A stretch of 64,000 nt of DNA from a virus (IMGVR_UViG_2690316068_000002), one strand, 5' to 3'. Shown: positions 15,941 to 63,069, numbered from the stretch's first letter. The notes: a model not told the origin generated them from the letters alone. Made by a program: numbers and translations.

Positions 15941-15999
15941 AGCCTGCTTCCGTATATTAATAATTAATATGTAGTTATTTATATATACAGAAGCAGGCT
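15941..15999. repeat. Palindromic element, copy 1 (17-bp arms, AT-rich loop)
   Basis: agcctgcttccgtatat ... atatacagaagcaggct; near-identical arms recur at about 63013-63069. Confidence 0.6.
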
Positions 16000-16020
16000 A
16001 ATTACAGACGCCAGAACAAA

Positions 16021-16614
16021 CTAAGCAGCCTTCTTTGATGGTCTTTTTTTCCTGATCACATTCGCAGGATCATACCCTCCCAGACTTTTCATGACGTCCA
16101 AAGGGATCTTGCTTATAGAGTGCCCAGCGTCCTGACAGAATCCTCGAAAAACAACGAGCATACTGCCACCGGGGTTGATGTTTACTTCTACCTGACCCAA
16201 ATTGACGTCAGGCTCGACAAACGCTACGCGGCCACCAGACAGAATAATCGTCTCATTCGCATACTCTGTTGCACGCTCATACCACTTTGTATCGAGGGAT
16301 TGAGGAATTAGCATCACTGTTGTAACTCCGCGAGCCTGCTCACGTATAGCAGCATCAATCCAGGGGGAGATTTTGGAGTAGGGTGGATTGAGGAAGGCAA
16401 TTGTACCTGGCTGTCCCCATTCAGATTTCAAAGCATCACGCTCAATGCCTATGAAATTAGGCAGCTTTGCGTTGTCCTTGTTGCAGGCAACGTCAACATC
16501 AAATGTCACTCCAAGATAACGTTGAATGGCAGAAAACAGCCAATCAGGTGTTCTCCAGAGGTCACGAAGAGAGTTGTCGCGCTTTCGCTGTTTGATTTTT
16601 TCGGCTGCAATCAT
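16021..16614 (-). CDS. Phage Dam-family N6-adenine DNA methyltransferase
   Basis: 197 aa; NPPYS catalytic motif. Confidence 0.7.
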   Translation of the reverse strand: MIAAEKIKQRKRDNSLRDLWRTPDWLFSAIQRYLGVTFDVDVACNKDNAKLPNFIGIERDALKSEWGQPGTIAFLNPPYSKISPWIDAAIREQARGVTTVMLIPQSLDTKWYERATEYANETIILSGGRVAFVEPDVNLGQVEVNINPGGSMLVVFRGFCQDAGHSISKIPLDVMKSLGGYDPANVIRKKRPSKKAA

Positions 16615-16682
16615 CTTCTTTCTCGATAGGTAAGTGATTACCTATTTTTGCATTTGATTTTATGTCTGGCAATCAAATAAAA

Positions 16683-16723
16683 CGCGCCAGAAATGCAAAC
16701 GAGAAGCTCTCTGGCGCGTTTTT
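16683..16723. terminator. Rho-independent terminator (bidirectional candidate)
   Basis: cgcgccag-N20-ctggcgcg followed by TTTTT. Confidence 0.5.
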
Positions 16724-16797
16724 GTGGTGCTGGATATGTGATTGGCTTACCCAGCACTATAAAGCTCTCTATGGGCTTTATTTTCAGTAGGGGGACG

Positions 16798-17607
16798 TCA
16801 TCCAATAGTGTACTCCGCTACAAACTTCTTAACGATCGGTGATTCTTCGTTCAATGTTAGATTTCCACCGTCTCTAACGGCAACTCCTGTCGCTGGAAAT
16901 ACAGCCATCATTTGCCCAGCCTGAGTTGACGCAGTGTTAAGCGGATACGGTTTTTCTGGATTGCTCATTAAAGCAATCTTAATACTATTACTTGTAGCCT
17001 TCTTTTCTGTGAGAAGGTGTCTCATGGAAATTACCGTGTAAACACTAATATCTGGACCTCCGCTAAACCAATTAAGAAGGTTTAATATCTTATCCTTTGC
17101 TTTGACAGGCGCGTTTTCGTAAGCGTCTAAGAAAATATCTGTTTCTAATCCTGCTTTATTGAAAAACGAATCATCTTTATCACTTAAAGTAAAACGAGGA
17201 CCTCTTGCAGTACGCGCTTTTTTATTTGTGTTGCTATCATTTGACTGTTGAACTTTTAATTCATCATTAACATCAACACACTCTTCAACCTCAATCAATC
17301 CCAATTGTTCTGGCTCGTTTTCGGCAGATTCAACACTTTCAGCGTTAATTACGTTTATAGGCTCATGCGCTAACTCCAACTCATTTAAAGCAGAGCTGAA
17401 ATCACCTGCTTTTTCTTCATTGAACAGTTCTTCGGCAACATCATCAGAACTCATGGCTACGCCAGCATCGAGGCCGAGCAGCAGATCGTCAATATCATCA
17501 GTATTTTCAACCTGTGCGGCTTTTTTTACTGGTTCATCAAGTGATTGCAACATGGCTGTCAGCTCGTCCAGATCATCATTTGTCATTACATTTTCAACCG
17601 AACTCAT
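16798..17607 (-). CDS. Hypothetical acidic protein
   Basis: 269-aa ORF, Asp/Glu-rich. Confidence 0.5.
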   Translation of the reverse strand: MSSVENVMTNDDLDELTAMLQSLDEPVKKAAQVENTDDIDDLLLGLDAGVAMSSDDVAEELFNEEKAGDFSSALNELELAHEPINVINAESVESAENEPEQLGLIEVEECVDVNDELKVQQSNDSNTNKKARTARGPRFTLSDKDDSFFNKAGLETDIFLDAYENAPVKAKDKILNLLNWFSGGPDISVYTVISMRHLLTEKKATSNSIKIALMSNPEKPYPLNTASTQAGQMMAVFPATGVAVRDGGNLTLNEESPIVKKFVAEYTIG

Positions 17608-17767
17608 GTAAGTCTCCTTCTGCTTGGTTACATTTGCGTTTCGATAGCTACATTTTGACTAAACCTATCAGGCGGAAAAGTATTAAATACAGGCAGGAAA
17701 TGATTGAAAGGCGGCTGTTCTTTAAAAGAAAGCCTGCTTTAAACTCTCTTTAAAGCAGGCTTTTGTT

Positions 17768-18322
17768 TTACACAATTTCAGAGGGTAATTTAAAAAATCC
17801 GTACTTATTACGTGCCTTAAAGAAGCATTGCATCATTAAGTTTGTGTCATATAAGGCACTATGTGCTTTAGTATGATCGTACATAAAGCCAAGAGAGAAG
17901 GCCAACTCTTCAAGGCGGGGACGTTTACCGTCTTCTGTGGCCCACAGGGAAAATATAGTGTCAATCAATGGGATGTCTGGAAGCGAAAAACCGTAACTTT
18001 TCAGCTCATGCCTAATAAACGGAATATCGAACGCTTCGCCGTTGTGGGCTATCCAAATATCGGAAGAAGAGAGATACGAAGCGACAGATGAAGCGTGATC
18101 GGCTAGTAACGGCTCGGCGGCTAAATCTTCAAGACTGATGCCGTGTACCGCTTGCGCTTTCGGATCGATACTGCGACGCGGGTTGAACCGCATTACAAAA
18201 CTATCAACCATTGTCTGTGTCTCCAGTTCATAGCGGGTAATTGCGATTTCAATAATTTTATGACCAGCAAGGAAATCCAGTCCCGTAGACTCGATATCGA
18301 TGCCTGCAACAATCGTTGTCAT
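17768..18322 (-). CDS. DnaQ-like 3'-5' exonuclease (Pol III epsilon-like proofreader)
   Basis: 184 aa; GIDIESTG (Exo I), H-x4-D near C-terminus; DEDDh pattern. Confidence 0.75.
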   Translation of the reverse strand: MTTIVAGIDIESTGLDFLAGHKIIEIAITRYELETQTMVDSFVMRFNPRRSIDPKAQAVHGISLEDLAAEPLLADHASSVASYLSSSDIWIAHNGEAFDIPFIRHELKSYGFSLPDIPLIDTIFSLWATEDGKRPRLEELAFSLGFMYDHTKAHSALYDTNLMMQCFFKARNKYGFFKLPSEIV

Positions 18323-18331
18323 CAGAACTCC

Positions 18332-18751
18332 TTACAACTTCTTAGCGCCCTTAAGTAGTGCGCTACGTACAAATTGAGCCGCTTTTTTCAAAGTTTCTTC
18401 ACTGGTTTCACAGACAATCGGATCTTTCCACTTACCTGACGCAGTGTTGAGAATATTGATTTGGTTGCTATCCAGACAAACAGAGATATAAAGCACCGTG
18501 CCACCAGCCAGCATCAAATGCATAGGAAACAGAGGCTTTTTACTGTCTTCACTGAACTGAGACATGGCGATGTTAATGGCTTCACCTACTTGTGCGCCAA
18601 CAAGCCCTTGCGCAATTTCGAATACGGTACGAATAGCCAGACGAGCCTCTCGATCGCTCATAAGCGACCGGGAATGTTCGTCCGCTACACGAATCAAAGC
18701 CTCTGTTGTTTTCCGATCCAGTTCATCTTCAAGTAACATTTCACTAAACAT
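18332..18751 (-). CDS. Hypothetical protein
   Basis: 139-aa ORF. Confidence 0.5.
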   Translation of the reverse strand: MFSEMLLEDELDRKTTEALIRVADEHSRSLMSDREARLAIRTVFEIAQGLVGAQVGEAINIAMSQFSEDSKKPLFPMHLMLAGGTVLYISVCLDSNQINILNTASGKWKDPIVCETSEETLKKAAQFVRSALLKGAKKL

Positions 18752-18812
18752 TTTTTATCCTTAACCCATTTTGAGAGTTTTATTGTCGCAATGTCGAAGA
18801 GGCGAACAATTT

Positions 18813-19457
18813 CTAATGAACGGTTACTCGGCCACAGAACCGGTTTTCTATCTTTTCTACAGCGTTATCTAGCATTCTCATCACTGATCTGGCTCTTGCT
18901 TCAACCGTGCGATATCGGTTGGAAACGACGAAGGTTTGCAGATCTCCCCTTTGCGGATGCAGGTGAATTTTTGTCAGTTCCCCGCACATCAACGCATCAA
19001 TACGAGCGACATACAGACGGTCTAATGATGCTCGTTGTGATCGCAAGTAATCTCGCTCTGAGAGAGCGACCCCCGGGCGTAGGCCAGCAATGGCGTTAAA
19101 GTTTGAAATAGCAGTTTTGTGGCAAAACTTTTCGATATCGAGGGCTAACTCAATACACCGATCTTCATTTGTATGGCCAACCAAATCCAACGTGTAGGCC
19201 ATAACATCAGCAGGTGTGCGATCGATAACAAAGCCTTCAACACCACGTGTAAGTAGCTCTATATGCTTTGCTATTTCCATTTGAATCTGAAGCCGCTCAT
19301 ATAGAGGCATAGACTCACCTACTCGAACACCGAGGCGGCTCATCAAACTTCCGACACCAGCATCCACGTAAGGGATTCCGTAATGTTTGTCGATATATTT
19401 AGCCAGGGTTGTTTTCCCACTGCCCTGAGCACCAGTGATCCCAATCCGGTAATCCAT
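18813..19457 (-). CDS. P-loop nucleotide kinase, dNMP kinase-like
   Basis: 214 aa; Walker A GAQGSGKTT; 1-nt junction with DHFR gene. Confidence 0.5.
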   Translation of the reverse strand: MDYRIGITGAQGSGKTTLAKYIDKHYGIPYVDAGVGSLMSRLGVRVGESMPLYERLQIQMEIAKHIELLTRGVEGFVIDRTPADVMAYTLDLVGHTNEDRCIELALDIEKFCHKTAISNFNAIAGLRPGVALSERDYLRSQRASLDRLYVARIDALMCGELTKIHLHPQRGDLQTFVVSNRYRTVEARARSVMRMLDNAVEKIENRFCGRVTVH

Positions 19458-19933
19458 TACGACCTTCTGTATACGATCTGCGAAAAGCCAGGCTCTTCCT
19501 CGCTGGCTCGTTGGGTATAAGCTGTTTCAACAGGCACAAAGCCTAAGTTACGCATCATGCTTGCCGGGAAGAATGCATCGGCGTTTGGTACATCAACGCC
19601 GATGTGGGAGAGCCAAATCTCTTCAACATGCGGCATGAATAGCGAGTAAATTTGTTCCCCGCCAATCACCCACACAGGCTCTGGTAATCGCAACACATCA
19701 TCCACACCAGCAGGGTAGAATCCATTTGGTACAAAGCCATGAGAGCGCGTCAAAACGAGGTTATGACGCTCTGGAAGAGGGCGTTTGAGACTTTCCATCG
19801 TTTTACGCCCCATAACGACAGTGGCGTTTTTGGTGAGTCTCTTAAATAGCTTCAGATCGGTAGAACAACGCCAGGGCAGTTCGTTCGCTATGCCGATCTC
19901 ATAGTTACGGCCAACAGCAGCGATCATCTTCAT
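19457..19933 (-). CDS. Dihydrofolate reductase
   Basis: 158 aa; MIAAVGRNYEIG...LPW...VVMGRKT DHFR signature. Confidence 0.85.
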   Translation of the reverse strand: MKMIAAVGRNYEIGIANELPWRCSTDLKLFKRLTKNATVVMGRKTMESLKRPLPERHNLVLTRSHGFVPNGFYPAGVDDVLRLPEPVWVIGGEQIYSLFMPHVEEIWLSHIGVDVPNADAFFPASMMRNLGFVPVETAYTQRASEEEPGFSQIVYRRS

Positions 19934-20343
19934 TTGCTCACCTCATAGATGACCGGTCGATGGTGAGAGTCGGCTAAAGCGGCACGGAGTCGAGGATCGT
20001 GCACCAGCGCAGCGATAAGCAGATCGCCTTTATGCTCCGCTAATGTGCGCTTAATATGCTTCTCATAACTGGTGCCATTCGGTACGAGATGAAGCCAGTC
20101 ATAATCAACGCCAAAATCTTTCAGCCATCGTTTAGTTGGCGCTTCAAGAGTTTCAGAGCGGCTACTGATAAGCACCACTTCAGCCCCTGAGCGAGCAAAA
20201 CCACGCAACATACGGCTGGTGGGGAAAATGAGTTCATCACCGGCAATGAGCTGGCCTGCATCCGCGTCAGATACTGATTTACGATGGCTGGCATTTGCCA
20301 GCACACCTTCAATTTCGCATAAGACATACATACCTCTTGCCAT
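19930..20343 (-). CDS. Hypothetical protein
   Basis: ORF-track 19930..20391 trimmed to ATG 20343 to avoid overlap with thyA. Confidence 0.4.
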   Translation of the reverse strand: MARGMYVLCEIEGVLANASHRKSVSDADAGQLIAGDELIFPTSRMLRGFARSGAEVVLISSRSETLEAPTKRWLKDFGVDYDWLHLVPNGTSYEKHIKRTLAEHKGDLLIAALVHDPRLRAALADSHHRPVIYEVSK

Positions 20344-20344
20344 A

Positions 20345-21448
20345 TCACACCGCCACTGGAACCTTGATCCACGGTAGAGGGTCATAGCCAAGAATTAAAA
20401 CCTCGTCCCATTTGAAATCATCCAACTCTGACCATTCATGAGGGAAAATAACGACCGGATCTGAATGCTCTGGAGCCTGTCGTTTCATTAGCTCACACAC
20501 ACCTTCCATGTGGTTGTTGTACAAATGCACGTCAAAGCCAAAATGCACAAATGCACCGGCCATGTGACCCGTAATCTTCGCGAGAAAATGAGTGAGAATG
20601 CCATAGCCAGCAATATTGAATGGCATACCAACAAAAGTGTCTACGCTACGCTGTACGAGGCAGGAGTTGAGGATGCGTTTGGGGATTCCAAGTTCATCCA
20701 GTTCAGCTTCAGTAACACTGCCGTCCATCTCCAGATCGTATAGCATCTTGGTGTAGATAGACTCGTAACCGAGGCGACTGTGTTGAAGACCAATGTCAGT
20801 TGCCATCGTTAAACGGGTTTCAAAATCCAGCTCACGACTCCACAAAGAGAAGACAAAGTGGCAAGGTGGCAGTTTCATATCCTCAAGCTCGCCTACGTTC
20901 CATGCGTTAAGCATGATGCGACGATCGGTAGGGTTCGTGCGCAGTGTATCGACAATACGCTGTAGCTGATCGATTTCACGGGACAGCACTACGCGATCTT
21001 CACTGATACCCAGGTATCCCTCGACTTTGTACCCGCGTTCACGGAAAGTAGCGATCTTGCTCAGATATTCACTATGGCTCACGATGCGGGTATCTTCCCA
21101 TCGACGCCACTGCTTACCGTAAACCGGCCCCAAATCGCCATTCTCATCGGCCCATGCATCCCAAATCTTAACGCCGTTATCCTTGAGAAATTGGATGTTG
21201 CCCGTGCCTTTCAGATACCACTCAAGTTCGACAAGTAGTGGCTTAAGATTTACCGCCTTTCCAGAAATAAGCGGCACAGTCCCACCAGTAAGCATGTAGT
21301 AAGAGGGAACGTAGCAGGTGCTTAAAGTGCCAGTGCCTGTGCGATCATCAGCCTGCACGCCGCTTTTAAGCACCGTCTCAATAACTTTTGCATACGATGC
21401 GTTTGTTACCTGACCGTTCGTATGCTCTCGATTCAAAAGGAGTGACAC
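20345..21448 (-). CDS. thyA: Thymidylate synthase family protein with insertions
   Basis: 367 aa; DRTGTGT, WADENGDLGPVYGKQWR, LPPCH and PFNIAGY motifs. Confidence 0.8.
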   Translation of the reverse strand: MSLLLNREHTNGQVTNASYAKVIETVLKSGVQADDRTGTGTLSTCYVPSYYMLTGGTVPLISGKAVNLKPLLVELEWYLKGTGNIQFLKDNGVKIWDAWADENGDLGPVYGKQWRRWEDTRIVSHSEYLSKIATFRERGYKVEGYLGISEDRVVLSREIDQLQRIVDTLRTNPTDRRIMLNAWNVGELEDMKLPPCHFVFSLWSRELDFETRLTMATDIGLQHSRLGYESIYTKMLYDLEMDGSVTEAELDELGIPKRILNSCLVQRSVDTFVGMPFNIAGYGILTHFLAKITGHMAGAFVHFGFDVHLYNNHMEGVCELMKRQAPEHSDPVVIFPHEWSELDDFKWDEVLILGYDPLPWIKVPVAV

Positions 21449-32823: not shown

Positions 32824-32864
32824 GCTGTAAGCCGCGCCACGACTGGTCTGAAGCCATGTTCATG

Positions 32865-32965
32865 TATGCTGTCAGCGGTAATTGATAGTCTGTCAGCGGT
32901 TCACCGTATGCTGCCAACTGTTTTTGGTATTCTGTCAGCGGCAAATCAAGTATGCTGTCAGCGGT
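32865..32965. repeat. Origin iterons, upstream set (5 direct repeats, about 21-bp periodicity)
   Basis: TATGCTGTCAGCGGT and variants starting at about 32865, 32886, 32907, 32928, 32951. Confidence 0.85.
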
Positions 32966-32985
32966 TGAATGACAAAGGTGTCCAC

Positions 32986-34080
32986 ATGTCCACAAAAAAT
33001 AAAAAAGGTAAAAATAACAAAGAAGTAGAAGATAACATCGACAACTTTGAAGAAGGTTCCCTTGAATTGTACACAGGGGAACTTGTCCCTAATAGCAACA
33101 ATACAGTCCAACCAATTGCGTTGATGCGACTGGGGTTGTTCGTCCCCACGCTTAAGGGAACAAAATACAGTAAACGTAACAAGCCAAATGAGATCGATGC
33201 TTCAAAGGAGCTTGTCCAGCTCGAAGTAGCCCGTTCTGAAGGCTATTCCGATATCAAGATAACCGGCCCTCGCCTGGACATGGATCATGATTTCAAAACG
33301 TGGGTGGGCGTTGTGCGTTCGCTGGCAGAATACGGCGAACCTAATGGTCGTGTCGAGTTAAGCATCACGAAATTTGCGAAGTTTTGTGGCTATCCATCGT
33401 CACAGATCCGCAAAACACTCCGCGACCGGCTTACAAACAGTCTTTTGAAGATCATGCGTACAACTCTGTCTTTCCAGAGAACGTATGAAGAAAAGAACGT
33501 CGACGGCTCTAACAAGATCTCGCTTCTGATGGTGCACCTCATCAATAGCGTGGACTACAACGAGCAGAAAGATACGGTGGTGTTCTATGCAGAACCGAAG
33601 CTGGCCGAACTATATCGCTTTGACCATAAGGTTCTTTTGCAGTTAAAGGTTATCAATAAGCTACCACGCAAAGAAACAGCACAGGCTCTGTACACCTTCA
33701 TCGAAAGTCTTCCAACCAAGCCTGCGCCGGTATCGCTTGCTCGATTGCGTGCGCGACTCAATTTGAGTAGCAGGAATGTCAGCTCGCAGAATCAGACTAT
33801 ACGTAACGGCTTAAAAGCTCTCCAAGATTTGGGCTATCTCGAATACAGCGAGATTAAGCGTGGGCGGTCGATCTATATCCAGATTCACAGCCGCAATCCA
33901 AAACTCAAAGTCGCACCGCCAAAACCTGAAGACATCGAACCCAAAAAACCAGATGAGAAAGCTGGGGAAATTGATGCCAAACAGAACATTATCAACAAGA
34001 TAACCGAACTTTCGCAGAATTTGACGCCTGAAAATATCAAGATGATTGAGATCCTTTCCAATAGTCTCAAACTGCTTTGA
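32986..34080 (+). CDS. repA: Plasmid-type replication initiator (iteron-binding Rep)
   Basis: 364 aa from internal ATG 32986; flanked by iteron sets, DnaA box and GATC cluster. Family assignment by architecture and recalled similarity. Confidence 0.75.
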   Translation: MSTKNKKGKNNKEVEDNIDNFEEGSLELYTGELVPNSNNTVQPIALMRLGLFVPTLKGTKYSKRNKPNEIDASKELVQLEVARSEGYSDIKITGPRLDMDHDFKTWVGVVRSLAEYGEPNGRVELSITKFAKFCGYPSSQIRKTLRDRLTNSLLKIMRTTLSFQRTYEEKNVDGSNKISLLMVHLINSVDYNEQKDTVVFYAEPKLAELYRFDHKVLLQLKVINKLPRKETAQALYTFIESLPTKPAPVSLARLRARLNLSSRNVSSQNQTIRNGLKALQDLGYLEYSEIKRGRSIYIQIHSRNPKLKVAPPKPEDIEPKKPDEKAGEIDAKQNIINKITELSQNLTPENIKMIEILSNSLKLL

Positions 34081-34197
34081 TATGCTGTCAGCGGTGAAAT
34101 GTATGCTATCAGCGGCTATTTTTCTGAAAAGTATGCTGTGAACGGTTAAAGATATGCTACCAGCGGTATAGTGAGATAAACGTATGCTGTGAGCGGT
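34081..34197. repeat. Iterons, downstream set A (5 copies)
   Basis: TATGCT(G/A)(T/C)(C/G)A(G/A)CGG(T/C) at about 34081, 34102, 34132, 34154, 34183. Confidence 0.85.
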
Positions 34198-34358
34198 AAA
34201 TCATCTATCACCACTCAATGCTCTGGCATACCTCCCCAGTGGTTACTAACCTCGAAGAGTGCATTCCATATAGGTTTGCGCTCACTAACATTCTATTGCC
34301 GTTGCGCTGATTGCTTGTAGTGAAAGGCATTTATTGCCTGCTGCTCCCTGATAGAACG

Positions 34359-34612
34359 TATGCTGTCAGCGGTGTTTTATTGAGGAATTTTTGTTTGGAT
34401 ATGCTATCAGCGGTAATTAATGGTATATGTCAGACCTTCGTATGCTGCCAGCGGTAATTTTGTTCTGGTTATACCCATACCGGTACACATTATTCATGCA
34501 ATGTCTTAAGTATGCTGTCAGCGGTAAAAAATCGAGTAAAGTATGCTGTGAGCGGTGAGATAAACTCTCGATATGCTATCAGCGGTAATTGATTGTGTAT
34601 GCTGTCAGCGGT
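34359..34612. repeat. Iterons, downstream set B (7-8 copies)
   Basis: Copies at about 34359, 34400, 34441, 34511, 34542, 34572, 34598 plus a degenerate copy near 34425. Confidence 0.85.
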
Positions 34613-42448: not shown

Positions 42449-42754
42449 TCTGTTCTCTGTAAAGGTGTCTGGCATCGTCTGGTTCGTTAACGTTTACTAA
42501 ACCAATGGTGACAAAAATTAGTTATCTTTGAAAAATAAAGGTTGCATGAAAAGAAGGGGTATGCGTTAATAGCATCGTTGGTTTGCAAGACAGACCTTAT
42601 GTAAGCAGTTTTAGTAAAGCAGTCTCAGTTCAGTGTTATCTTCTGATTTCCCTTCTTCGTGAGTCTCCTCCTTAAGTGCCTAAGTAAGTCCCAATCTATA
42701 CAGATCAAATTCTCGCCGCACTATGTGGCTCACAAAATTAAGAAGGTAATATCT

Positions 42755-42970
42755 ATGTCTAATAAAATGACTGGTTTAGTAAAATGGTTTAACTCTGATA
42801 AAGGCTTTGGCTTTATTTCTCCTGCTGATGGCAGTAAAGATGTTTTTGTACATTTTTCGGCAATTCAGAGTAATAATTTCCGCACTTTGGAAGAAGGCCA
42901 GCAGGTCGAATTCTCTATCGAGAATGGGGCTAAAGGCCCAGCAGCAGCAAATGTCGTTGCTCTAAGTTGA
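42755..42970 (+). CDS. Cold-shock protein, CspA family
   Basis: 71 aa from ATG 42755; [13 protein letters not shown]...[13 protein letters not shown]-track start 42659 lies in the long leader. Confidence 0.9.
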
Positions 42971-43245
42971 TTCAACGCTGATGATCCTCATTTCTACAAT
43001 AACGAAGACGGTGTAAGCCTGAGTGGATAGATTTGTAGGATTGTACAAGTTGAATAAATTAGCATGGTAAGGCCATGCTAATTAAATCGACACAACGGCC
43101 AGTTTATTCCATAAAAGTGAATTGCCCATTGTGGCGAAATGCGGGGTTGCCGCATGAATAGTCAAAGGCAGAAGCTAACTGCCGGCATGGCAAAACAAAG
43201 TGCGTAAGAGGAGTGACTTCCTCAACAAGCGCCATAATTCTTTAT

Positions 43246-43273: not shown

Positions 43274-46200
43274 TTACTTATTTATTGTCTCCGCGATATC
43301 AGCCAGAATGGCCTCCAGTCGCTCTCCTTCTTCCGGTCGGAAGTACAGGATATTCGGGTTAAATCCGTAGAAGACGGTTGCATCAAGCTCTGGGAAGTAC
43401 TCCTTACGACCAATCAGATCTGATGGTTTACTCTTATTGTTAAATAGTGCGGTTGAACGACTACCACACGTCAAAATGTAGGTCGGACGCACCAGATTGA
43501 TCTCTTCACGCATAAAGTCGGTGAACTGGCCGATCTCGTCTTTGGTGTAGTCTTTTTCTTTGTCTTTAACCTTCTTGCAAACGCCTGTGACATAGAGATC
43601 GCCCATGCGTAAATCTCCAGCCGTCAATAGCTTGGCCTTAAAGTCGTCGTATCCGTTCTCCATGAAGTAACCGGTTCGAGCATCATTGCCGTTCGCATTG
43701 TCCAGAATGATCATGATTTTCGGCTTAATACCAATGTTGGGGCGGATTAGTTCATCACCTAAGCCCATTTCAGCCGCCATCCGTGTCATGAGCACGTTAA
43801 TCTCAGCCGAACGTTTGGGGTTCATCTCAAACGGACGTGAGGCTTTAACTGCGTCTATGACAAGGTTTCCCATCAATTCAGCCTGGTCGCGTAGGCGCTC
43901 TGGATCAGTTGCTGGCAGACTACCTGGCTCGATGGATGCAAACGCCCCTACTTTTTGCAGCGATTCGCGCACTCGACTATTACAGGCACGTTTCTCGACA
44001 GCTTCTTCGAATTGCGCCAGTGACTCGAATTTGCCGCCAACTTTTTCTCGCGCTCTCATGATGGCTTGGCAGCCATTCTCAGAACACCCCTTCACAGCAG
44101 AGAAGGGCGCATACAGCACCTGGCTGCCATCTTCAAGCGTGCGGATCTCGATTCGGTTAGATGACACGTTAACGTCTGGTGGCAATACGCGAATACCATA
44201 GGTCAGCGCATCTTTAACCAGCCCCTGGTGTTTATCTTCGCCAAGAATAGTGAGAGCAGCAGCGAAAAACTCTGCGGGATAATGAGTTTTCAACCACATA
44301 GATTGATAACTGATTAAGGAGTAGGCAACAGAGTGTGATTTATTGAACTGGTAGGCACCATTTTTTTCGAATGCGGTCCAGATCTCCTTCGCTTTCATCT
44401 CTGATAGCCCTGGATGTGACGCTGTAACGCGTACTGCGTTTATAGGTAGTTTTGCGCCGTGCTCAAGTGCCTCTTCGACAGTTTTCAGAGTTCCGTCTTC
44501 GCATTTAAAATGTTCCGCACGGTGAATGCGCTGTGTAGTGCCATCTTCCAGCTCAACGTCTATCCAGCCAGCTTGAGCCTGAACGATGAACTTCTCGCCC
44601 ATGCTCTTCATTTTTTCCATGTTCTTCTTACCGATTGCGGAACGCACACCGTCAGCTTCAGCCATTGTGAAGCCGGCAAGCAATCGAGTCGCGTTCATCG
44701 TCTGTTCCTGATAGAGAATCACGCCATTTGTTTCCGCGGTAAGTTCATCAAGAACGGGGTGTAATGATTCCGGCGTCATAAAGCCTTTGGCGACAGAAAC
44801 ATAGTCGTCCAACATGCCGGATTGGATCGGGCCAGGTCGGAAGAGTGCGGTCGTGGCGACAACGGTTTTAAAGCTCATTGGCTCAATGCCACCGCCTAGA
44901 TCTTTAAGCAGCTTGCGCATGGGGCCGGACTCCAGCTGGAATACGCCCTGTGTATACCCTGCAGCAAAACCATCCAGCACCTTGCGATCTTCAAGAGAAA
45001 TGGCATCAAGATTGATATCTTCACCTGTGTTCTCTTTTATGTAGCGTTTTGCACTATCGAGCAAATCGAGAGTTGCCAGGCCAAGCACGTCCAGCTTAAT
45101 TAGGCCCATAGCCTCGCAGTAACGCTTGTCAAATGCGATACAACGCGCGTCACCACGGCGCTCAACCGGTGTACGTTCTGTCAGAGGAACACCTGCTACA
45201 ATCATCCCTGCCGCATGTCTACCAAAGCCACGCATAAGGCTTTGTAACTTGCAGGCTGCATTGAATGCATCAGGATATTTTGTTGCGTATTTGTCGAGAC
45301 TTGCCAGTTGTTCGCGCAGCTCTTCCAATGGAAGGCTATCATCCTCGACGTTCTTCAGTTCTTTTGATACCGCCATATCTGCGGACTCCACACCATAAAT
45401 ACGAGCGGTGTCACGTAGTGCAGAGGCTGCGCCCAGGTAGGTGAAGTTCGGAATGCCTGCAACGTAATCTTCGCCGTAGCGTTCATTCAGATACTCGATC
45501 ACCTCATGGCGACGTGCCTGGCTGAAGTCCAAGTCCGCATCCGGCAAGTCGAGACGCTCAGGGTTGATGAAACGCTCAAACAGAAGACCGTGACGGATTG
45601 GGTCGACGTTGGTTATGCCTATGCACCACGCCACCAGAGAACCGGCAGAGGAACCACGACCAGGCCCGACAGGAATGCCAGTTTCACGGCTGTGATTCAT
45701 CAGATCGCGTACCATCAGGAAGTAACCACAAAATCCCAGGCGAGTCAGCGTGTTCATTTCGTACTTTAGCCGCTCAACATAAACCCTGTTCTCAGAAGCA
45801 GGTGGTGTGTATCCAAACTCTTTTGTGGTAAGACGTTTACGCAGCCCTGCAACAGCCAGTTTCATCAGCGTTGCAGGTTCGTCGTCTGCCATCTTGGGCA
45901 GTGCTGGTGGCAATTCATGCCAGCGCCATGTGCAGGCATCGATAATGGAGTCCTGCGTTGTTGAGGCCATTGCAGCTGTTACCGGCACATCCATGCGAAC
46001 GGAGAAGGCTTTAAGCGCCTCAAGGAGATGGCGACGACCATTGATGGCGTTATCTCGCTGGTGGGGGATACGCAGACGATGCGGCTGGTCGATTTTTATG
46101 TTGTTCGTAACCATGTGCGCAATGTCTTTAATGTCTGCATCGTCGATCGATTCGTAATAAGCGGGATAGAACGCTACTGGCTCTATTTTCAGTGCGCTGG

Positions 46201-46792: not shown

Positions 46793-46976
46793 GTGTTTTT
46801 ACCTTTCTGGTTTTTTTGATTTTGTCATTTGGGAAGCCTACGAACTTCCCATGCATCGAAATCGCAACTTCTTTTGCTGATTGGTGACAATCGGGCTTGT
46901 CTGGACACACCAGACAAGCCTTACCAGTTTCAGAAGCAGCGATAAGAGAGCCGAAACATCCTTTACGCACGATCAA
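46767..46976 (-). CDS. Small Cys-containing protein (possible zinc ribbon)
   Basis: 69-aa ORF between CobS-like and DnaE genes; overlaps DnaE start by 26 nt. Confidence 0.25.
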   Translation of the reverse strand: MIVRKGCFGSLIAASETGKACLVCPDKPDCHQSAKEVAISMHGKFVGFPNDKIKKTRKVKTHEGTDGSN

Positions 46977-50723: not shown

Positions 50724-50974
50724 TCAATCAATCCATTCTAACTTATACTATGGTAAGGAATACTACTAAAATTTGTATCAATACTGAATACATTCATATC
50801 ATATGCAAGTTGATTTTCTTACCTGTTTTGGGCTAATTTTTCTCCGTGCAATGGCCTTTAACCGGTCTTTTAAGTGCCTATCGAAAAAAATGATAATAGC
50901 TTTACAACCCTAACCTTTGATGTAATATCGGTAAGCACTTACCAGAGAGAATTGAACGCGCAAAGGTTGTAACC

Positions 50975-54481: not shown

Positions 54482-54485
54482 GCAA

Positions 54486-54580: not shown

Positions 54581-54658
54581 CACAGCGTTGAGCGGTCTGG
54601 TTTATGTTAGCGGAGTCTTAATCTGGGTGATTAAAAGGCCAAACCGCTCAACGCTGTG
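54581..54658. repeat. Long inverted repeat (20-bp arms, 1 mismatch) abutting the 3' end of tRNA-Ser
   Basis: cacagcgttgagcggtctgg ... ccaaaccgctcaacgctgtg. Confidence 0.6.
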
Positions 54659-54660
54659 TC

Positions 54661-54747
54661 TGGCGGAGAGTAATGGAATCGAACCATCATCGCTTGCGCA
54701 ATGGGACGGTTTTCAAGACCGCTTGAGCACCATGCTCCCTACTCTCC
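54661..54747 (-). tRNA. tRNA-Ser (anticodon UGA), type II
   Basis: Hand-folded: GGAGAGT/ACTCTCC acceptor, G discriminator, encoded CCA, anticodon loop CUUGAAA, long variable arm, TTCGATT T-loop. Confidence 0.75.
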
Positions 54748-54960: not shown

Positions 54961-55036
54961 TGGTGCCGGTTAACGGATTCGAACCGCCGACCATTCGCTT
55001 ACAAGGCGACTGCTCTACCAACTGAGCTAAACCGGC
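54961..55036 (-). tRNA. tRNA-Thr (anticodon UGU)
   Basis: GCCGGTT/AACCGGC acceptor, encoded CCA, anticodon loop CUUGUAA, TTCGAAT T-loop. Confidence 0.75.
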
Positions 55037-55040
55037 AATT

Positions 55041-55127
55041 TGGTGGGGAGTGATGGAGTCGAACCACCCGAGTCGCAATGACAGTAGATTTACAGTCTAC
55101 ACCGCTACCTCTACGGACTAACTCCCC
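55041..55127 (-). tRNA. tRNA-Tyr (anticodon GUA), type II
   Basis: GGGGAGT/ACTCCCC acceptor, encoded CCA, anticodon stem-loop GACUGUAAAUC, long variable arm. Confidence 0.75.
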
Positions 55128-55132
55128 TAAAT

Positions 55133-55207
55133 TGGCGATGGTGGGTGGATTCGAACCACCGACCAGTTGGTTAACAGCCAACTGCTCTACCGCTGAGCTA
55201 CACCATC
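55133..55207 (-). tRNA. tRNA-Asn (anticodon GUU)
   Basis: GATGGTG/CACCATC acceptor, encoded CCA, anticodon loop CUGUUAA, TTCGAAT T-loop. Confidence 0.75.
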
Positions 55208-55473: not shown

Positions 55474-55595
55474 CACAACGTTGAGGCCACTACTCCGATT
55501 GAATGTTTGCCCAACATGTTACATATCAACGCTCGCCGGTATCTCTGTGAATAGAACCTTAGAATTGATAAAAATGTAATGGCCTCAACGTTGTG
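55474..55595. repeat. Long inverted repeat (15-bp perfect arms, about 92-bp loop) upstream of the tRNA cluster
   Basis: cacaacgttgaggcc ... ggcctcaacgttgtg; arm related to the 54581 repeat. Confidence 0.55.
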
Positions 55596-55985
55596 TGCTG
55601 GCTAACCATACCAGCCGGGCTACGTCGCCGCTTTTTAACCCAGTATAAACGACATAATTGAACAAAATGACGTAACAGGATGGGCGGTCAGTGGCTAAGA
55701 ATCCGGGAGTCATATGGAGTTGAAAATATACCAACCGCCCATTCTGTTACTTCATCGGAGGGAACATGAATGTTCCCTCCTGCGTTCTGCAATCACACTC
55801 GCTCAGTGTGTCCCATTTCGGTAACGAGGCTGGAAACTGACCTCGCTGGTGTTTGGCTTATTAGGCTACTGCCAGATAGACTTCTTCGTTTGCACTTGTA
55901 TTTAAGTTCAAACAGTCGCGTCTCAACGAAAACAAAGTCATCTTATACATAAAAGATAAGTAAGTAAATACTTATTATTGTATTT

Positions 55986-58598: not shown

Positions 58599-58652
58599 AA
58601 ATAATCTTGTACTTACCTATCGTTATTTGCGTAAAAACGACGCACGGAGAGA

Positions 58653-59435
58653 TTACCAACTTCCCCAGCTAACCATCTTGCGCTGATTGCTTTCTAAGCG
58701 ATAGGGGACAAGAAGCTCTGTGACATGATTGGTGGCGTATGATTTAGCCTCTTGCTCTATCATCGGTAATTCGTTAGCAATCCTGACCATCTTCCCAGCA
58801 AATTCCGCCATTACGCCATCACATGCCTTCCCAGCATCAATAACGATATGCACCAGATCCAACTGGCTTTTGCACATGTCGCAAAGAGACGCATACTCAC
58901 TCTCTCTGATTACATTTACGGCATCATTAGCCCCTTTATTAAGCAAGACTTCCAACAGGTTTGTCGGGGTAACGAAATCGGCTTTAAGTGACAATGTTCT
59001 CTCACCTTTTATCGACCGTAAGTACTCTTCGTAGTTTTGCTTGTCTTCCAGCAAAACTAAGCTATGCATAGTTAGAAGTGATTCCTGAATAGCCTCTTCA
59101 ATAATACTGTCGTTTGGCGCACAAAAAACGGTATTTGTGTAGATCACTTTGCCATCCATCCATGCACCAACCTGCACTTTAAGACTGAGCGGGTTTTCTT
59201 TGCTAATAAAAACAACTAATGCAGAACGCCGTGCACAAGAAGGTTCACCCCATACGTGTAACTCAACTTTCAGATAAGGTAGCCCTGGTAGCGGGATCTC
59301 AACCAAACGAGTGGCGATATGATCCATTGCTGTTTTTACCGCTTTTTCAATGATGTCTAGTCGATTGCTCTCGCTGATTTCTAAACCAGTTTTATCAATG
59401 ATGTCGCAGGCTAATTTCTGAATTTCGTCTTTCAT
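58653..59435 (-). CDS. Hypothetical protein
   Basis: 260-aa ORF. Confidence 0.5.
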   Translation of the reverse strand: MKDEIQKLACDIIDKTGLEISESNRLDIIEKAVKTAMDHIATRLVEIPLPGLPYLKVELHVWGEPSCARRSALVVFISKENPLSLKVQVGAWMDGKVIYTNTVFCAPNDSIIEEAIQESLLTMHSLVLLEDKQNYEEYLRSIKGERTLSLKADFVTPTNLLEVLLNKGANDAVNVIRESEYASLCDMCKSQLDLVHIVIDAGKACDGVMAEFAGKMVRIANELPMIEQEAKSYATNHVTELLVPYRLESNQRKMVSWGSW

Positions 59436-59510
59436 ACCAACTCCTAGCTAACAGATGAAAGTATTCTCACAGAAAGATAAGTAATCATCTACTTATTTTA
59501 AAGGTGATTG

Positions 59511-60692
59511 TTATGATAGAGCCTTAATGCCCAAAACCTTGCTTTGCAACTCCAACTGTTTGGTATACGGTTTTGCCCGATAATAGGCTTTGATAATTTG
59601 TTCTGGCGTTGCACCGCCCGGGTCGAGTCCTTCCTCACCCAAACACGCAACTTTGACATTAAGACCGATACTGGTCAGTCGCCTGGCTGCGGCCATAGTG
59701 TTGCGTATAGCTTGCTTTTCACTATCCCACATCATGATCACATTACGTAACCCACGCGCCTTGAGCGTCAGGAACGCGCCTAACTGATCTTCTGCATCCT
59801 GAGTGGTGTTACCAGATAGATGCATCCCGAACGTTCCTATTGGTTCCACGTAATCACGTAATGTTTCTTCGTCAAAAATAGCTCGTTTAACCCCCATAAC
59901 ATCGAACGCCCCCTCACAGACAACTACAGTCTGTTTGCCGACTGCATTATGGCCGTTGTAGAGAAACTTACCTGAAGCTGGAAGTTGCATAGGAAAGAGG
60001 TAGCGGCGTTCTGCTGTACCGGTAATGTCTCGTCCCTGAAATGTCTTCATTACCCCATCCAGATCGTAAACCGGTATCAGTATTCGCATATCGAATATCT
60101 GTCCTTTAACCTGATCTGTATACGGATCTACATAAGCGTGCTTGCCTTCGACGCAGTATCGTAGGTCAAAATACTTTGCCATTTCAGGTGATATGTTTCG
60201 TTCAACCAGATAGTCTGGAAGACGGCCATCTATAGGAAGTTCGTAATGACGAGGGAGTGCAAGTGGTCCCTCTAACTCGACTGTGCTTGCAAGCACTATC
60301 TCTTCTTTCTTTGGTGCCCACCCCTGGGAAAGAAGGGCGTTCTGCACATATTCCTCGAACTGTCGTCGTGATTTGCCGCTGTAGTGCTTGAGGAAGACCA
60401 GCTTATTGAACTGAATCTCTTCGGGATGATCACCAGCAAAGCATTTGCCGACGCCACTGGTCAGATTGAAATATACCTTCCAGTTGGAGCTGCCGCATAC
60501 CGGACATTCCTTGATATTCACTTCACGACCGCGAGCACTCACGCCTCCACGTCGATAAACGATACCTTCAGTATCCAACCATTGTTCAAAATCTAATTCG
60601 GCAATTAGCTCTTTCAGCTCGCTCACGATAATTCCACTTTTAACAGGCAATATTGTGACCAACCTAAATGTTGATATAACATAAAGGCTCAT
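59511..60692 (-). CDS. DNA primase (zinc ribbon + TOPRIM)
   Basis: Start moved to ATG 60692 with conserved ribosome-binding context; CPVCGSS...C zinc ribbon; VVVCEGAFDVMG TOPRIM. Confidence 0.8.
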   Translation of the reverse strand: MSLYVISTFRLVTILPVKSGIIVSELKELIAELDFEQWLDTEGIVYRRGGVSARGREVNIKECPVCGSSNWKVYFNLTSGVGKCFAGDHPEEIQFNKLVFLKHYSGKSRRQFEEYVQNALLSQGWAPKKEEIVLASTVELEGPLALPRHYELPIDGRLPDYLVERNISPEMAKYFDLRYCVEGKHAYVDPYTDQVKGQIFDMRILIPVYDLDGVMKTFQGRDITGTAERRYLFPMQLPASGKFLYNGHNAVGKQTVVVCEGAFDVMGVKRAIFDEETLRDYVEPIGTFGMHLSGNTTQDAEDQLGAFLTLKARGLRNVIMMWDSEKQAIRNTMAAARRLTSIGLNVKVACLGEEGLDPGGATPEQIIKAYYRAKPYTKQLELQSKVLGIKALS

Positions 60693-60773
60693 GTGTTTTT
60701 CTTTTGTGGTTTGGCAAAAGAAAAGTTGTTTCACAAATGAATCAAGCGTGGAGGTGTTCTCCACGCTTATTTT

Positions 60774-62114
60774 TTAGGTAACGTCTAAGATTCGCTCAAT
60801 GAAACGCATTTGTTCGAGGTTTTGTTTAACGCGAATGCTGATCCCACCCTGCTGGTTACGTGAACCAGCAAAGTAGAGACGAGCCTCTCCTTTCGCTTCT
60901 TCTTCTTCGGTTTTGTTGATCGTTATTACCAGGTCAGCAATACGTACTTTTTCGATGTTATCGGCGGCGTGCATCATTGTGGCAACTTCTGACGCGCCAC
61001 CTTCACGGTTTGTCTGCGATGCCGTGATCCCAGCAACGTTATGCTTGTCATAAAGAGCACGTAAATCGGTGTAGATACTACGAATGTTGGCGCGATCATC
61101 ACGAAGGTCATAACTGGCACGCATCAAATCTGCGTAGTCGACAACAACCATGTCAGGCACCATGCCGTTGGCTTTCATGCTGTTAAGCATACGGTCCAGA
61201 TCTGCCGGTGACATACTTCCTGACGGACGCTCAACAACCCACAAACTACCAATCCCCTTAGAGGCTCCCAACTCTGCCAACTTACGATGAACTTCATCGC
61301 GCCGTTCCACCAACTTGGACATTTCCGTCTCCGACAATCTTGCATCAAAACGGTCGGACAAAATGTTGGTGTGAACCTCCAGCGAGAGATACAGAACATT
61401 GTAGCCAGCAAGCGTTGCGTTTATGGAAAACTCACCCATTGCGGTCGATTTACCGGATTTAGCGAACCCCATGAAGAGCACCATTTCACGCTTCGCCCAG
61501 CCTTTTTGGTACAGCAACCTATCGAGCAGAGGGAGTCCAGTTGTAATGCTGTTTGGCACATACTCCTCTGAGGCCTCATATTCACGCGCTTTCAGTCGCT
61601 CACTTGCTGAGGTGTAGTAGTCATAGATTCCGGTTGCTTCGTTCGAGCCTATCTGCTGAACCTTGGCCATGATTGCCATCGCCCCCTGAAAGTCGCCCTT
61701 CTCTTTCAGTTCAGCAGCCTTAATCAGAGCATCATCAAACGCTACGCTTTTTGCGAAGGTTGATACCTGGTCAACCATGTACGAGGTATCGGACAATTTT
61801 TCTGCAAGGATGCGCTTAAACGCAGCAACAACATCGGCGAATAGTTCCTCACGGATAGTCTTATCGCGTTTCGCACGCTTAAGCATATCCAGAATTGCAG
61901 ATGAAGAGGGCGCGCTCTTGTACATACGGTAATAGCCCGAAACCATATTAACCAATATGGCATTGGCCGCATTGGCAAATTGGTTAGGCACAACCAGATC
62001 TCCCGCACGAGTAAGAAACTCGTGATCACGACAAAAATATGCCGTCAGTCTGTTCTGGAAATCTTCATCAAACTCTTCGGACAGCCCGCGTCCTGTATGG
62101 CAAAGTTCGGTCAT
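60774..62114 (-). CDS. DnaB-like replicative helicase
   Basis: 446 aa; Walker A GFAKSGKS, Walker B VVVDY, ASQTNREG H3 motif. Confidence 0.85.
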   Translation of the reverse strand: MTELCHTGRGLSEEFDEDFQNRLTAYFCRDHEFLTRAGDLVVPNQFANAANAILVNMVSGYYRMYKSAPSSSAILDMLKRAKRDKTIREELFADVVAAFKRILAEKLSDTSYMVDQVSTFAKSVAFDDALIKAAELKEKGDFQGAMAIMAKVQQIGSNEATGIYDYYTSASERLKAREYEASEEYVPNSITTGLPLLDRLLYQKGWAKREMVLFMGFAKSGKSTAMGEFSINATLAGYNVLYLSLEVHTNILSDRFDARLSETEMSKLVERRDEVHRKLAELGASKGIGSLWVVERPSGSMSPADLDRMLNSMKANGMVPDMVVVDYADLMRASYDLRDDRANIRSIYTDLRALYDKHNVAGITASQTNREGGASEVATMMHAADNIEKVRIADLVITINKTEEEEAKGEARLYFAGSRNQQGGISIRVKQNLEQMRFIERILDVT

Positions 62115-62157
62115 GTGCTTTCCTTTGTTTTTTAAACAAATTGTTTTCTAGTATTAG

Positions 62158-62907
62158 TTAATTAGATAGGGGATCAATAAACCGCCGTGCTTCTTCCAGT
62201 TCTTCTGGAAAGTGGGCGGAAATAAGGCGTTCTGGAACGATTTCCATTAGCCAGATAGCGGAGAAAATTGCGCGTATGCGCTTGCTGCGAGGGATGGTGC
62301 GCAAACGCTCCAGAATCCACTCAAAATAGCTTTCCTGAATCGGGTTGAACTGCATGTCTCCCATATGCTTAAAGCTAACCAGAGAGTCATCCAGACGGGT
62401 TGTTGCGCGTCTGGCTAATTTCTCTTCAAATATCTCAATCAGTTCTGGCTGCCACAAATGCTGTGGGCGCGGCAGCTTGTCCCACAGCCGTCGTGCAGCT
62501 GCGGAAAGAACGGTGGAGATAAAGTAGTCGTATGAGCAGCAATAGCGATCCGCAAACTGGCGTGCTTTCCATAGCGACGTTTTATTGGCAGTCGACAACT
62601 CCTGATAAGGCAGGCGTTTTAACCCGGTGGTGAACGGAGCTGTTTCAAAGTGTTCGCGACCGTGCGTCAGCATGATATTTGAGTACTGACGTTTGTATGC
62701 CTCCGTAAAAAGACAGGTGGCCATGAGAGGATGCATGTCGCGGTAATCAAACCACTTCGTCTCGAAGAGTTCAGCCTCGTCTTTACAGCGCGACAAACCA
62801 ATGTTTTCAGCGACCCACTTGTCCATAACAGCGGTATTCCACTCTGTCATGAAGTCGTACTGGTCGTTGTCGATGGTATCGAAAAAGATTTGGCTCATGT
62901 GGCTCAC
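62158..62907 (-). CDS. Hypothetical protein
   Basis: 249-aa ORF with GTG start. Confidence 0.5.
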   Translation of the reverse strand: MSHMSQIFFDTIDNDQYDFMTEWNTAVMDKWVAENIGLSRCKDEAELFETKWFDYRDMHPLMATCLFTEAYKRQYSNIMLTHGREHFETAPFTTGLKRLPYQELSTANKTSLWKARQFADRYCCSYDYFISTVLSAAARRLWDKLPRPQHLWQPELIEIFEEKLARRATTRLDDSLVSFKHMGDMQFNPIQESYFEWILERLRTIPRSKRIRAIFSAIWLMEIVPERLISAHFPEELEEARRFIDPLSN

Positions 62908-63012
62908 CTGGTAGGTAGTTACTTACTTATCACAATGAGCGGATGATAGCGACTGGTGGCAGTTTTTGGAAGTGGAAACGGAAGGGACTTGTTCTGGTGG
63001 GTGTCTTTAAAA

Positions 63013-63069
63013 GACCTGCTTCTGTATATATATAAATACTAATTTACTTATTATATACAGAAGCAGGTC
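63013..63069. repeat. Palindromic element, copy 2 (18-bp perfect arms)
   Basis: gacctgcttctgtatata ... tatatacagaagcaggtc; related to copy at about 15941-15999. Confidence 0.6.

Follow-up and report, generated by a model that had tools for sequence, protein, structure and literature searches.

What is the role of a long palindrome that stands at two distant intergenic sites of the same viral DNA? We addressed this question in IMGVR_UViG_2690316068_000002, a viral stretch of 64,000 nucleotides (nt) that was analysed as a whole and is called the window here. Its genes lie nearly all on the minus strand, and the element it comes from is a phage-plasmid of the SSU5/pHCM2 type, the two loci that we compared being 98.9–99.3% identical to Escherichia phage Cyrano. 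An earlier note on this DNA had described the palindrome at two sites downstream of minus-strand genes and had suggested a terminator family, a recombination site or a protein-binding element. We found that the two copies belong to a three-copy family whose structure is conserved, and with moderate confidence we read the two copies in the window as sequence-related intrinsic (Rho-independent) terminators or insulators on the minus strand.

Copy 1, at site A behind a dam-like methyltransferase gene, has 17-nt arms (15941–15957 and 15983–15999) that lie 25 nt apart and are 94% complementary, the sole non-Watson–Crick position being a U·G pair on the minus, gene-sense strand. Copy 2, at site B behind a gene of the DUF2971 family, has 18-nt arms (63013–63030 and 63052–63069) that are 100% complementary and 21 nt apart. 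Each element measures about 57 nt. The window has exactly four occurrences of a 15-mer common to both palindromes, CCTGCTTCYGTATAT, one in each arm; its next-best match (16335–16349, within dam) has three mismatches, and by our own estimate an exact 15-mer is expected by chance about 2e-4 times in 128 kb, counting both strands. The arm coordinates, their complementarity and the common 15-mer bore out the repeated palindrome of the earlier note, and its place downstream of minus-strand genes held as well, as dam ends at 16021 and the DUF2971 open reading frame at 63092. A covariance model built from 18 family members, scanned over the whole window with filters off, scored 76.5 bits (E ~1e-14) at site A and 68.2 bits (E ~1e-12) at site B; the third-best hit, with 18.6 bits (E 0.13), was an ordinary terminator at 17731–17761. 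The canonical bidirectional terminator at 17724–17768 follows an epsilon-like exonuclease gene and consists of an A-tract, a 15-bp stem, a 5-nt loop and a T-tract. The 9 nt at the start of its stem, AGCCTGCTT, recur in the palindrome arms; this may be a chance likeness or may mark a short relative of the palindromes. Two additional half-sites, one in SSU5 (43714–43728, one mismatch, inside a coding sequence) and one in the window (46926–46940, four mismatches), were treated as chance matches or remnants.

The AT-rich loop that had been described between the arms stood only in part: the centres are AT-rich, but they mostly pair with themselves, so that RNA folding gives each element as a single long imperfect hairpin. 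On the sense strand the folding energy was −30.6 kcal/mol for copy 1 (z −5.2) and −33.2 kcal/mol for copy 2 (z −8.8). Both hairpins rest on a GC-rich base, CCUGC/GCAGG, followed by an outer stem of 16–18 bp in all, an internal loop or bulge, and a further 6–8 bp. The CTGT and ACAG of the arms had been said to lack the spacing of a LexA box, and this was correct: they lie on opposite arms, separated by more than 30 nt instead of 8, and neither palindrome contains the SOS box CTGT-N8-ACAG.

The position of the two hairpins was equally consistent. On the gene-sense strand copy 1 begins 22 nt past the dam stop codon and copy 2 begins 23 nt past the stop codon of the DUF2971/PDC-S31 gene, and both lie more than 80 nt ahead of the next co-directional gene. 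At both copies UUUU directly abuts the stem, within the 0–2 nt that a terminator allows between stem and U-tract. Hence, for the two copies of the window, the terminator family proposed earlier gains support from the proximity to stop codons, the GC-rich stem base, the conserved UUUU and the location at the 3′ ends of units.

The three-copy family and its conservation

An exact two-arm pattern matched 94 stretches in viral contigs, with at most three copies per contig. The complete genomes of Cyrano and SSU5 carry three copies at fixed loci: locus A after dam; locus B between the par operon or its cargo and the replication block; and locus C, outside the window, after a gene for an 88-amino-acid (aa) protein and about 117 nt before terS. 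The earlier note had called for a search for more copies, with the existence of these two only as part of what would refute its reading. Two copies are all that the window has, but the whole element has more: the search yielded the third copy outside the window in the complete genomes and homologous copies across the phage-plasmid family. Among 80 site-B loci, 78 have exactly one palindrome, and the contigs of the other two, which have none, end inside the palindrome.

Outside viral contigs the element was rare. In species-representative genomes only 10 stretches matched, seven of them in Enterobacterales records (Kluyvera, Buttiauxella and Y. pestis), three of these being contigs of ~108 kb. 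The site-B unit was present in 218 of 5,426 complete E. coli genomes, at 219 places on plasmids and at none on a chromosome. The element is thus confined to the SSU5/pHCM2-type plasmid family, and the lack of any chromosomal copy in the 5,426 genomes excluded the repetitive palindromes of host genomes (REP, ERIC and similar) and miniature inverted-repeat transposable elements. A search of Rfam 15 returned no match at the gathering threshold, and no description of the palindrome family or of a hotspot was found in the papers searched on SSU5, pHCM2 or phage-plasmids.

We then asked what is conserved. Arm pairing was tested on 18 elements from five lineages by shuffling right arms among elements 2,000 times. 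Pairs formed at 234 of 252 positions, against 176 ± 12.5 after shuffling, and 0 of the 2,000 shuffles reached the observed value, a significance that the shuffle overstates because the sequences are related. Several arm positions showed two to four Watson–Crick pair types (for example CCTAG/CTAGG versus CCGCG/CGCGG), which is direct evidence of compensatory change. Such changes occurred even within the E. coli/Salmonella/Klebsiella clade, where CTTCCG/CGGAAG became CTTTCG/CGAAAG and CTGCTTC/GAAGCAG became CTGCGTC/GACGCAG. Structure, not sequence, is conserved.

Comparison with whole plasmids of Moellerella and Pectobacterium extended this to distant relatives, which have palindromes at the same three loci with other arms (GCCTAGCTCCCATA in Moellerella, GCCGCGCTCYCATA in Pectobacterium). 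Two viral contigs have further lineage-specific arms, GCCTTGCTCCCATA and GCCGTGTTCCCATA. When a single 14-nt arm of a divergent lineage was searched against viral contigs only chance matches were obtained, and the two-arm pattern found dam-site copies only. Loop length varies freely between a few nt and over 100 nt, the distant relatives having 50 to more than 100 nt; the Moellerella and Pectobacterium copies retain a stem of ~21–24 bp despite these long loops.

Around the hairpin lies a second, outer inverted repeat. In the SSU5 clade it reads TCTGGGAG ... CTCCCAGA, with extensions that covary (GAGTT/AACTC versus GAGTG/CACTC), and in Moellerella and Pectobacterium CCGCAG(TG) ... (C/T)ACTG(C/T)GG, including differences compatible with G·U pairing. 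RNAalifold on 12 site-A sequences kept both the outer helix, UCUGG/CCAGA, and the inner hairpin. The module is built of nested inverted repeats, namely outer boxes, GC-clamped arms and an AT-rich core.

The three copies of a genome have common lineage-specific arms and outer boxes, that is, they evolve in concert. Gene conversion between the copies would most simply account for this concerted change. UvsX/RecA-, UvsY-, gp32-, SbcCD- and RuvC-like recombination proteins are annotated in Cyrano. We also noted that the Moellerella plasmid NZ_CP093251 has a fourth, single-arm copy (GCCTAGCTCCCATA + GTATTTATATAG) at ~555–585, inside another hairpin just after a cobT-like gene.

Termination, processing or a dedicated factor

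The flanks of the hairpins in relatives were consistent with termination at loci A and B. At locus B, 26 of 30 distinct flank types have a T-run of at least four directly after the stem, and at locus A 11 of 17 do; the tail beyond it diverges across relatives (TCTTTTAAAAGA, TCTTTTTCTATG, TCTTTTACGACC and others), a pattern that selection on the U-tract itself would produce. At site B the tail is T-rich even in Moellerella (CATTCTTTTTCTTT) and Pectobacterium. In relatives whose dam is 68–72% identical the left arm is lost and a canonical short GC hairpin with T5 stands at the same place, a predicted functional replacement of the palindrome. In relatives without cargo the site-B palindrome lies 29–30 nt after the stop of the last gene of the par operon, which encodes a 119-aa ribbon-helix-helix (RHH)-like protein. 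Among relatives with cargo, nearly all have a different GC hairpin after the RHH stop, and there the palindrome closes the cargo unit. A strong terminator would be expected here, between a constitutive par/defence unit and a repressed lytic block.

Based on these data, we propose that each palindrome would form the 3′-terminal part of the transcript of a separate unit: that of dam at site A, and that of the par operon with its defence cargo at site B. The transcript would form a very stable GC-based hairpin followed by UUUU, and RNA polymerase would be released before it reached the next lytic block, which is separately promoted and probably controlled by a repressor. The common sequence of the three copies, placed at operon boundaries, would be kept by gene conversion. 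The arrangement resembles the intrinsic terminators that close 'moron'-type units of temperate phages, in which a GC-based hairpin and a U-tract follow the stop of a small, independently promoted unit (here dam or the defence cargo) among co-directional phage genes. It differs from them in having one sequence at three loci, an extra outer helix and one member without a U-tract, and from typical intrinsic terminators, with a stem of 5–12 bp and a loop of 3–8 nt, in its stem of 17–25 bp with an AU-rich top. If the copies are simple terminators, they would explain how co-directional lytic genes stay silent beside constitutive maintenance and defence genes in the plasmid-prophage.

Several observations weigh against termination as the sole function. 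Copy C has the same hairpin but a T-tract in 0 of 16 flank types, indicating that the hairpin is kept there for a reason beyond, or instead of, canonical termination; another hairpin, canonical and with a T-run, stands apart from copy C just before terS in the E. coli and SSU5 lineages. The stems are far longer than those of typical terminators, and the long loops of distant relatives are poor terminator design. Some lineages retain only the right arm and TTTAAATA, beside a canonical terminator, and such remnants hint at a function of sequence rather than structure. The concerted evolution of the copies is something that independent terminators do not need. Wobble pairs were inconsistent, with sense-strand G·U outnumbering A·C by 32 to 3 at site B and standing at 8 to 11 at site A, and this bias, strong at the one site and absent at the other, was set aside as a test of RNA against DNA function. 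Finally, a simple terminator scan of the window called neither site, because the loops exceed its 3–8-nt rule. By the usual measure of a compact hairpin (stem ~5–14 bp, loop 3–8 nt) neither copy qualifies, with 17–18-nt arms and 21–25 nt, partly self-paired, between them.

A hairpin that is retained at a third locus without a T-tract is also what might be seen if the palindromes were substrates of RNase III. Here, as at the sequence-related intergenic RNase III sites of phage T7, a stem of ~22 bp would be cut. The messages on its two sides would thereby be separated, with a hairpin left to protect the 3′ end, and termination at A and B would be an added feature. The stem length fits, as it stays at ~21–24 bp over loops that range between a few nt and more than 100 nt; this is about two helical turns (at least 20 bp) of double-stranded RNA, often with an internal loop, as the enzyme calls for, and an internal loop or bulge is present. 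Only transcripts that read through would form the outer helix (UCUGG/CCAGA; elsewhere in the family CCGCAG/CUGCGG), and the sole Rfam similarities, all below threshold, were to microRNA precursors, which are generic long hairpins. Nevertheless, host RNase III is conserved across hosts and leaves unexplained why the three copies have common arms specific to each lineage, and processing needs no conserved T-tracts at A and B. We therefore regard RNase III cleavage as an improbable primary role. The intergenic RNase III processing sites of phages T7 and T3, reportedly described by Dunn and Studier in 1983, are similar in being sequence-related hairpins of ~50–60 nt with internal loops between co-directional genes of one genome. 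The present elements differ in that they have three copies only, two of them with U-tracts, and have arms that vary by lineage despite the conserved host enzyme.

Common arms and outer boxes at three dispersed loci, changing by lineage in E. coli/Salmonella, Moellerella and Pectobacterium plasmids, raised the possibility that the palindromes are recognized by a dedicated trans-acting factor. They could be regulated terminators that are read through with a phage antiterminator, or operator- or centromere-like DNA sites of a plasmid DNA-binding protein. Dispersed palindromes of this kind are known from the sopC-like sites of N15, the KorB operators of RK2 and the omega sites of pSM19035. As in those systems, a few inverted-repeat copies are spread over a plasmid-prophage, one lies right after the par operon, and all change together by lineage. 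In the basal arrangement site B follows the parB-like RHH gene at 29–30 nt, where the centromeres of some par systems sit, and there is no repeat array upstream of parA. Candidate binders exist, as the genes of two ParB_N proteins and of an 88-aa winged-helix-like protein lie just upstream of copy C, and right-arm-only remnants are conserved in some lineages.

The candidate binders, however, seem not to co-vary with the sites. Their presumed recognition elements are nearly unchanged across lineages with different arms and boxes: the RHH β-strand reads KSRTMSLEDEY or KSRTVSMEDEY, the helix of the 88-aa protein TTKQSMQFSIRAL, and the helix of the TerS helix-turn-helix RRETLSRHFKKR. The distance between half-sites ranges from ~20 bp to beyond 100 bp, a poor fit to a dimer bound to duplex DNA, and the arms often differ in ways compatible with wobble pairing instead of being identical half-sites. 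Moreover, the RepA iterons are unrelated to the palindromes, and the main repressor seems to use another palindrome, GGTAAG-NN-CTTACC. Compared with dispersed centromeres and operators, the family thus has a wide and variable spacer, keeps complementarity, including wobble, rather than half-sites, and has candidate binders that seem not to change with it. Recognition by such a factor seems unlikely to us on this evidence.

A broader version of this idea, which we put forward as a doubtful one, makes the three hairpin modules the cis targets of one dedicated phage-plasmid factor, protein or RNA, that would work as a genome-wide switch of regulated terminators or processing sites. Lytic blocks would be insulated in the plasmid state and opened on induction, and the module would be a portable 3′ border of defence cassettes. 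Coevolution with the factor would explain the joint change of arms and boxes at all three loci. If true, the switch would insulate the replication genes, the block downstream of dam, and the packaging and structural genes from units expressed in lysogeny, and its reading by a dedicated factor would add a new regulatory layer to the lysogeny–lysis decision of phage-plasmids. A T4-type late promoter motif, TATAAATA, lies inside the palindrome in many copies; its orientation relative to genes is inconsistent and we rejected it as merely part of the AU-rich stem, no gp55-like factor having been sought.

The cargo slot at locus B and the third copy

Locus B differs from the other two in its surroundings. 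The DNA upstream of the palindrome is hypervariable, and the palindrome with the ~105–110 nt to the next gene is conserved. The slot thus defined extends from the RHH stop codon of the parB-like gene on the left to the palindrome, or to a point at most ~30 nt before it, on the right; when empty, the slot is ~30 nt wide. Among the cargos are PD-T7-5 (E 4e-139), a PDC-S49-like protein, small membrane proteins, PDC-S31 (the DUF2971 gene of the window) and non-coding filler, and nearly every cargo type opens with its own GC hairpin directly after the RHH stop (window 63092–63895 and homologous loci L183–L262). Homology with relatives breaks at the site-B palindrome, and at least 12 unrelated upstream sequences meet the conserved DNA either at the left arm or no more than ~30 nt from it. 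In addition, close relatives differ by an inversion of the entire palindrome (L184 versus L187; L187 versus L220, with homologous cargo; and the window versus SSU5). SSU5-type phage-plasmids carry resistance and defence genes including PD-T7-5, as described in a study that mentions neither a hotspot nor the palindrome (10.1101/2025.09.12.675607).

The turnover of cargo suggested a recombination element acting on DNA, in which an extruded hairpin or cruciform would be a preferred site of breakage and joining for SbcCD-like, RuvC-like or UvsX/UvsY-type proteins or a site-specific recombinase, driving cassette exchange and perhaps recombination-dependent replication. The many unrelated cargos that end near the left arm, the stop of homology at the palindrome and the inversion of the whole element beside homologous cargo are in its favour, and so are the GC-clamped arms around an AT-rich centre, which favour extrusion. 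Sequence records also break at the element: the contigs L195 and L199 inside the palindrome, and the SSU5 and Cyrano records start inside copy C. Such breaks at palindromes are, however, a common assembly artefact. Loci A and C do not adjoin variable genes, and so the palindrome alone does not make a site of cassette exchange; the 80 site-B loci contained no tandem cassette arrays or second sites, and no integron-type core sites. Selection for a terminator before the replication genes would explain the fixed border equally well. Hence the recombination site of the earlier note has the homology break, the many cargo junctions and the inversion at site B behind it, but no recombinase or crossover mechanism, and its question whether genes flanked by copies vary among relatives is answered positively at locus B and negatively at loci A and C. 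We consider a recombination element quite unlikely.

On the terminator reading, the constancy of position at B may come from nothing more than the need for a terminator at this point: the site-B copy would have to stay in order to shield the replication genes, and would in this way become the invariant right border of the defence-gene slot. Two known types of cassette boundary were compared with it. Like an integron attC site, the palindrome is imperfect, has conserved ends and a variable centre, follows a cargo reading frame and marks a cassette boundary. It differs from attC in that the arms, CCTGCTTCYGTATAT, have no GTTRRRY and the R″/R′ core (RYYYAAC ... GTTRRRY) is absent, no IntI-type integrase was identified, there are no cassette arrays, and two of the three copies lie away from variable genes. 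The defence-gene hotspots of P2-like phages and P4-like satellites, which Rousset et al. are said to have reported in 2022, have in common with locus B that one slot, flanked by conserved genes of a temperate element, holds different anti-phage systems in different isolates; at locus B the host is an SSU5-type phage-plasmid and the empty slot is the ~30 nt between the parB-like stop codon and the palindrome.

Copy C drew attention to packaging. The GenBank records of SSU5 and Cyrano both begin inside the copy C loop, 134–135 nt before terS, with an offset of 1 nt. As copy C lies with its downstream boxes ~117 nt before terS, it could belong to a pac or cos region, with the window copies as extra or decoy sites. 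The records linearised in its loop agree with this, the layout of copy C and terS recalls the cosN–cosB–Nu1 order of lambda, and TerL is of the T4/headful type, which would make several initiation sites tolerable. On the other hand, other records start elsewhere, metagenome contigs (L195 and L199) end inside copy B too, and the conserved T-tracts at A and B have no packaging role. The common record start is likelier an assembly break at the palindrome, later copied by synteny, than a real packaging terminus, and a packaging site appears very improbable. The record of Klebsiella phage p4727, which starts near site A, was rejected as a parallel case since its start falls at the ATG of a gene and not in the palindrome. 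Between copy C and terS, Cyrano and SSU5 (both at 60–130) contain two direct repeats, AAACAAGTTGGTTAG, after which a canonical GC hairpin with a T-run (AGAGCGC...GCGCTCTGTGTGTTTT) stands ~20 nt ahead of the terS start codon, a layout reminiscent of antitermination control of late operons.

SSU5/pHCM2-type phage-plasmids are common in clinical Enterobacteriaceae, and the palindrome family offers a sequence-searchable landmark for their three main unit boundaries and for the defence-gene slot, where PD-T7-5 and the candidates PDC-S31 and PDC-S49 are exchanged. The mechanism itself is probably ordinary; what is noteworthy is that the copies evolve in concert, that their architecture is nested and that the family is linked to a defence slot.

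Neighbouring genes and other features

The features around the palindromes are collected in Table 1. The dam unit is ordered as a canonical terminator (16679–16722), a promoter-like site (16672–16644), an operator-like palindrome AGGTAATCACTTACCT (16626–16641), dam and copy 1, and AGGTAATCACTTACCT resembles GGTAAGCACTTACC of the immunity region. Copy 2 has no upstream TCTGG partner in the window, because the cargo junction falls between TCTGG and the palindrome. The 105 nt that separate it from the replication-block gene hold a −10-like TATCAT and an operator-like AAGTAAGTAACTACCTACC.

Table 1. Palindrome copies, their flanking motifs and the adjoining genes (window positions unless an accession is given).
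Feature	Position	Strand	Remarks
Palindrome copy 1 (site A, site 1)	15941..15999	-	17-nt arms AGCCTGCTTCYGTATAT; AT-rich, partly self-pairing centre
Palindrome copy 2 (site B, site 2)	63013..63069	-	Perfect 18-nt arms GACCTGCTTCTGTATATA
Third copy (outside the window)	Cyrano OV696614 108340..17; SSU5 NC_018843 103261..18
T-tract after copy 1	15930..15940	-	Sense strand CUGUUUUGUAUC; UUUU at 15939-15936
T-tract after copy 2	63003..63012	-	Sense strand (stem)UUUUAAAGAC; UUUU at 63012-63009
Outer box TTCTGG	16011..16016	-	Upstream of copy 1 in sense; can pair with the CCAGA box beyond the hairpin
Outer box CTCCAGAC	15918..15925	-	Downstream of copy 1 in the sense direction
Further box CCCAGACGC	~15875-15883	-	Beside a -10-like TAAAAT, downstream of copy 1
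Box CACCAGAAC	62990..62998	-	Downstream of copy 2
dam-like N6-adenine methyltransferase gene	16021..16614	-	Unit closed by copy 1
DUF2971 / PADLOC PDC-S31 candidate-defence cargo gene	63092..63895	-	Unit closed by copy 2
First replication-block gene	62158..62907	-	Conserved; homologue of Cyrano CYRAN_31; followed by dnaB-like helicase and primase

The DUF2971 gene matched Pfam DUF2971 with E 2.6e-10 and PADLOC PDC-S31 with E 3e-41, and its true start is likely the ATG at ~63845 (MLYKYVG...). Pfam and PHROGs assigned no function to CYRAN_31, CYRAN_80 or the 88-aa and RHH-like proteins. We considered 'CCAGWCGC plus a -10 element' as a promoter motif used throughout the genome and dropped it, as it is present only downstream of sites A and B and so forms no class. 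The RepA iterons were likewise rejected as a source of the CCAGA boxes, since their GTATGCTGTCAGCGGT arrays (32860–32965 and 34076–34612) are unrelated to arms or boxes.

Palindromes of the GGTAAG-NN-CTTACC type occur at 50931–50944 between the repressor and a cro-like gene, at 16626–16641 on the 3′ side of the dam promoter-like site, and at ~62915–62935, as AAGTAAGTAACTACCTACC, before the replication block. They are likely operators of the main repressor, which would put dam and the replication genes in one regulon. At least 13 iterons of GTATGCTGTCAGCGGT flank repA (32866–34080), in what is the region of the plasmid origin and of copy control.

Around the tRNA cluster, at 54581–54658, 55474–55595 and 55667–55755, long inverted repeats of a second family were seen (CACARCGTTGAG... 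/ ...CTCAACGYTGTG), with arms of 20–22 nt and 38–82 nt between them. Three tRNAs lie on the minus strand at 54964–55207, and a tRNA-like T-arm repeat at 54657–54688 was not called as a tRNA. Finally, a full-length match to the Rfam cspA thermoregulator (187 bits) at 42577–42994 on the plus strand spans the leader and the reading frame of a cold-shock-protein-like gene.

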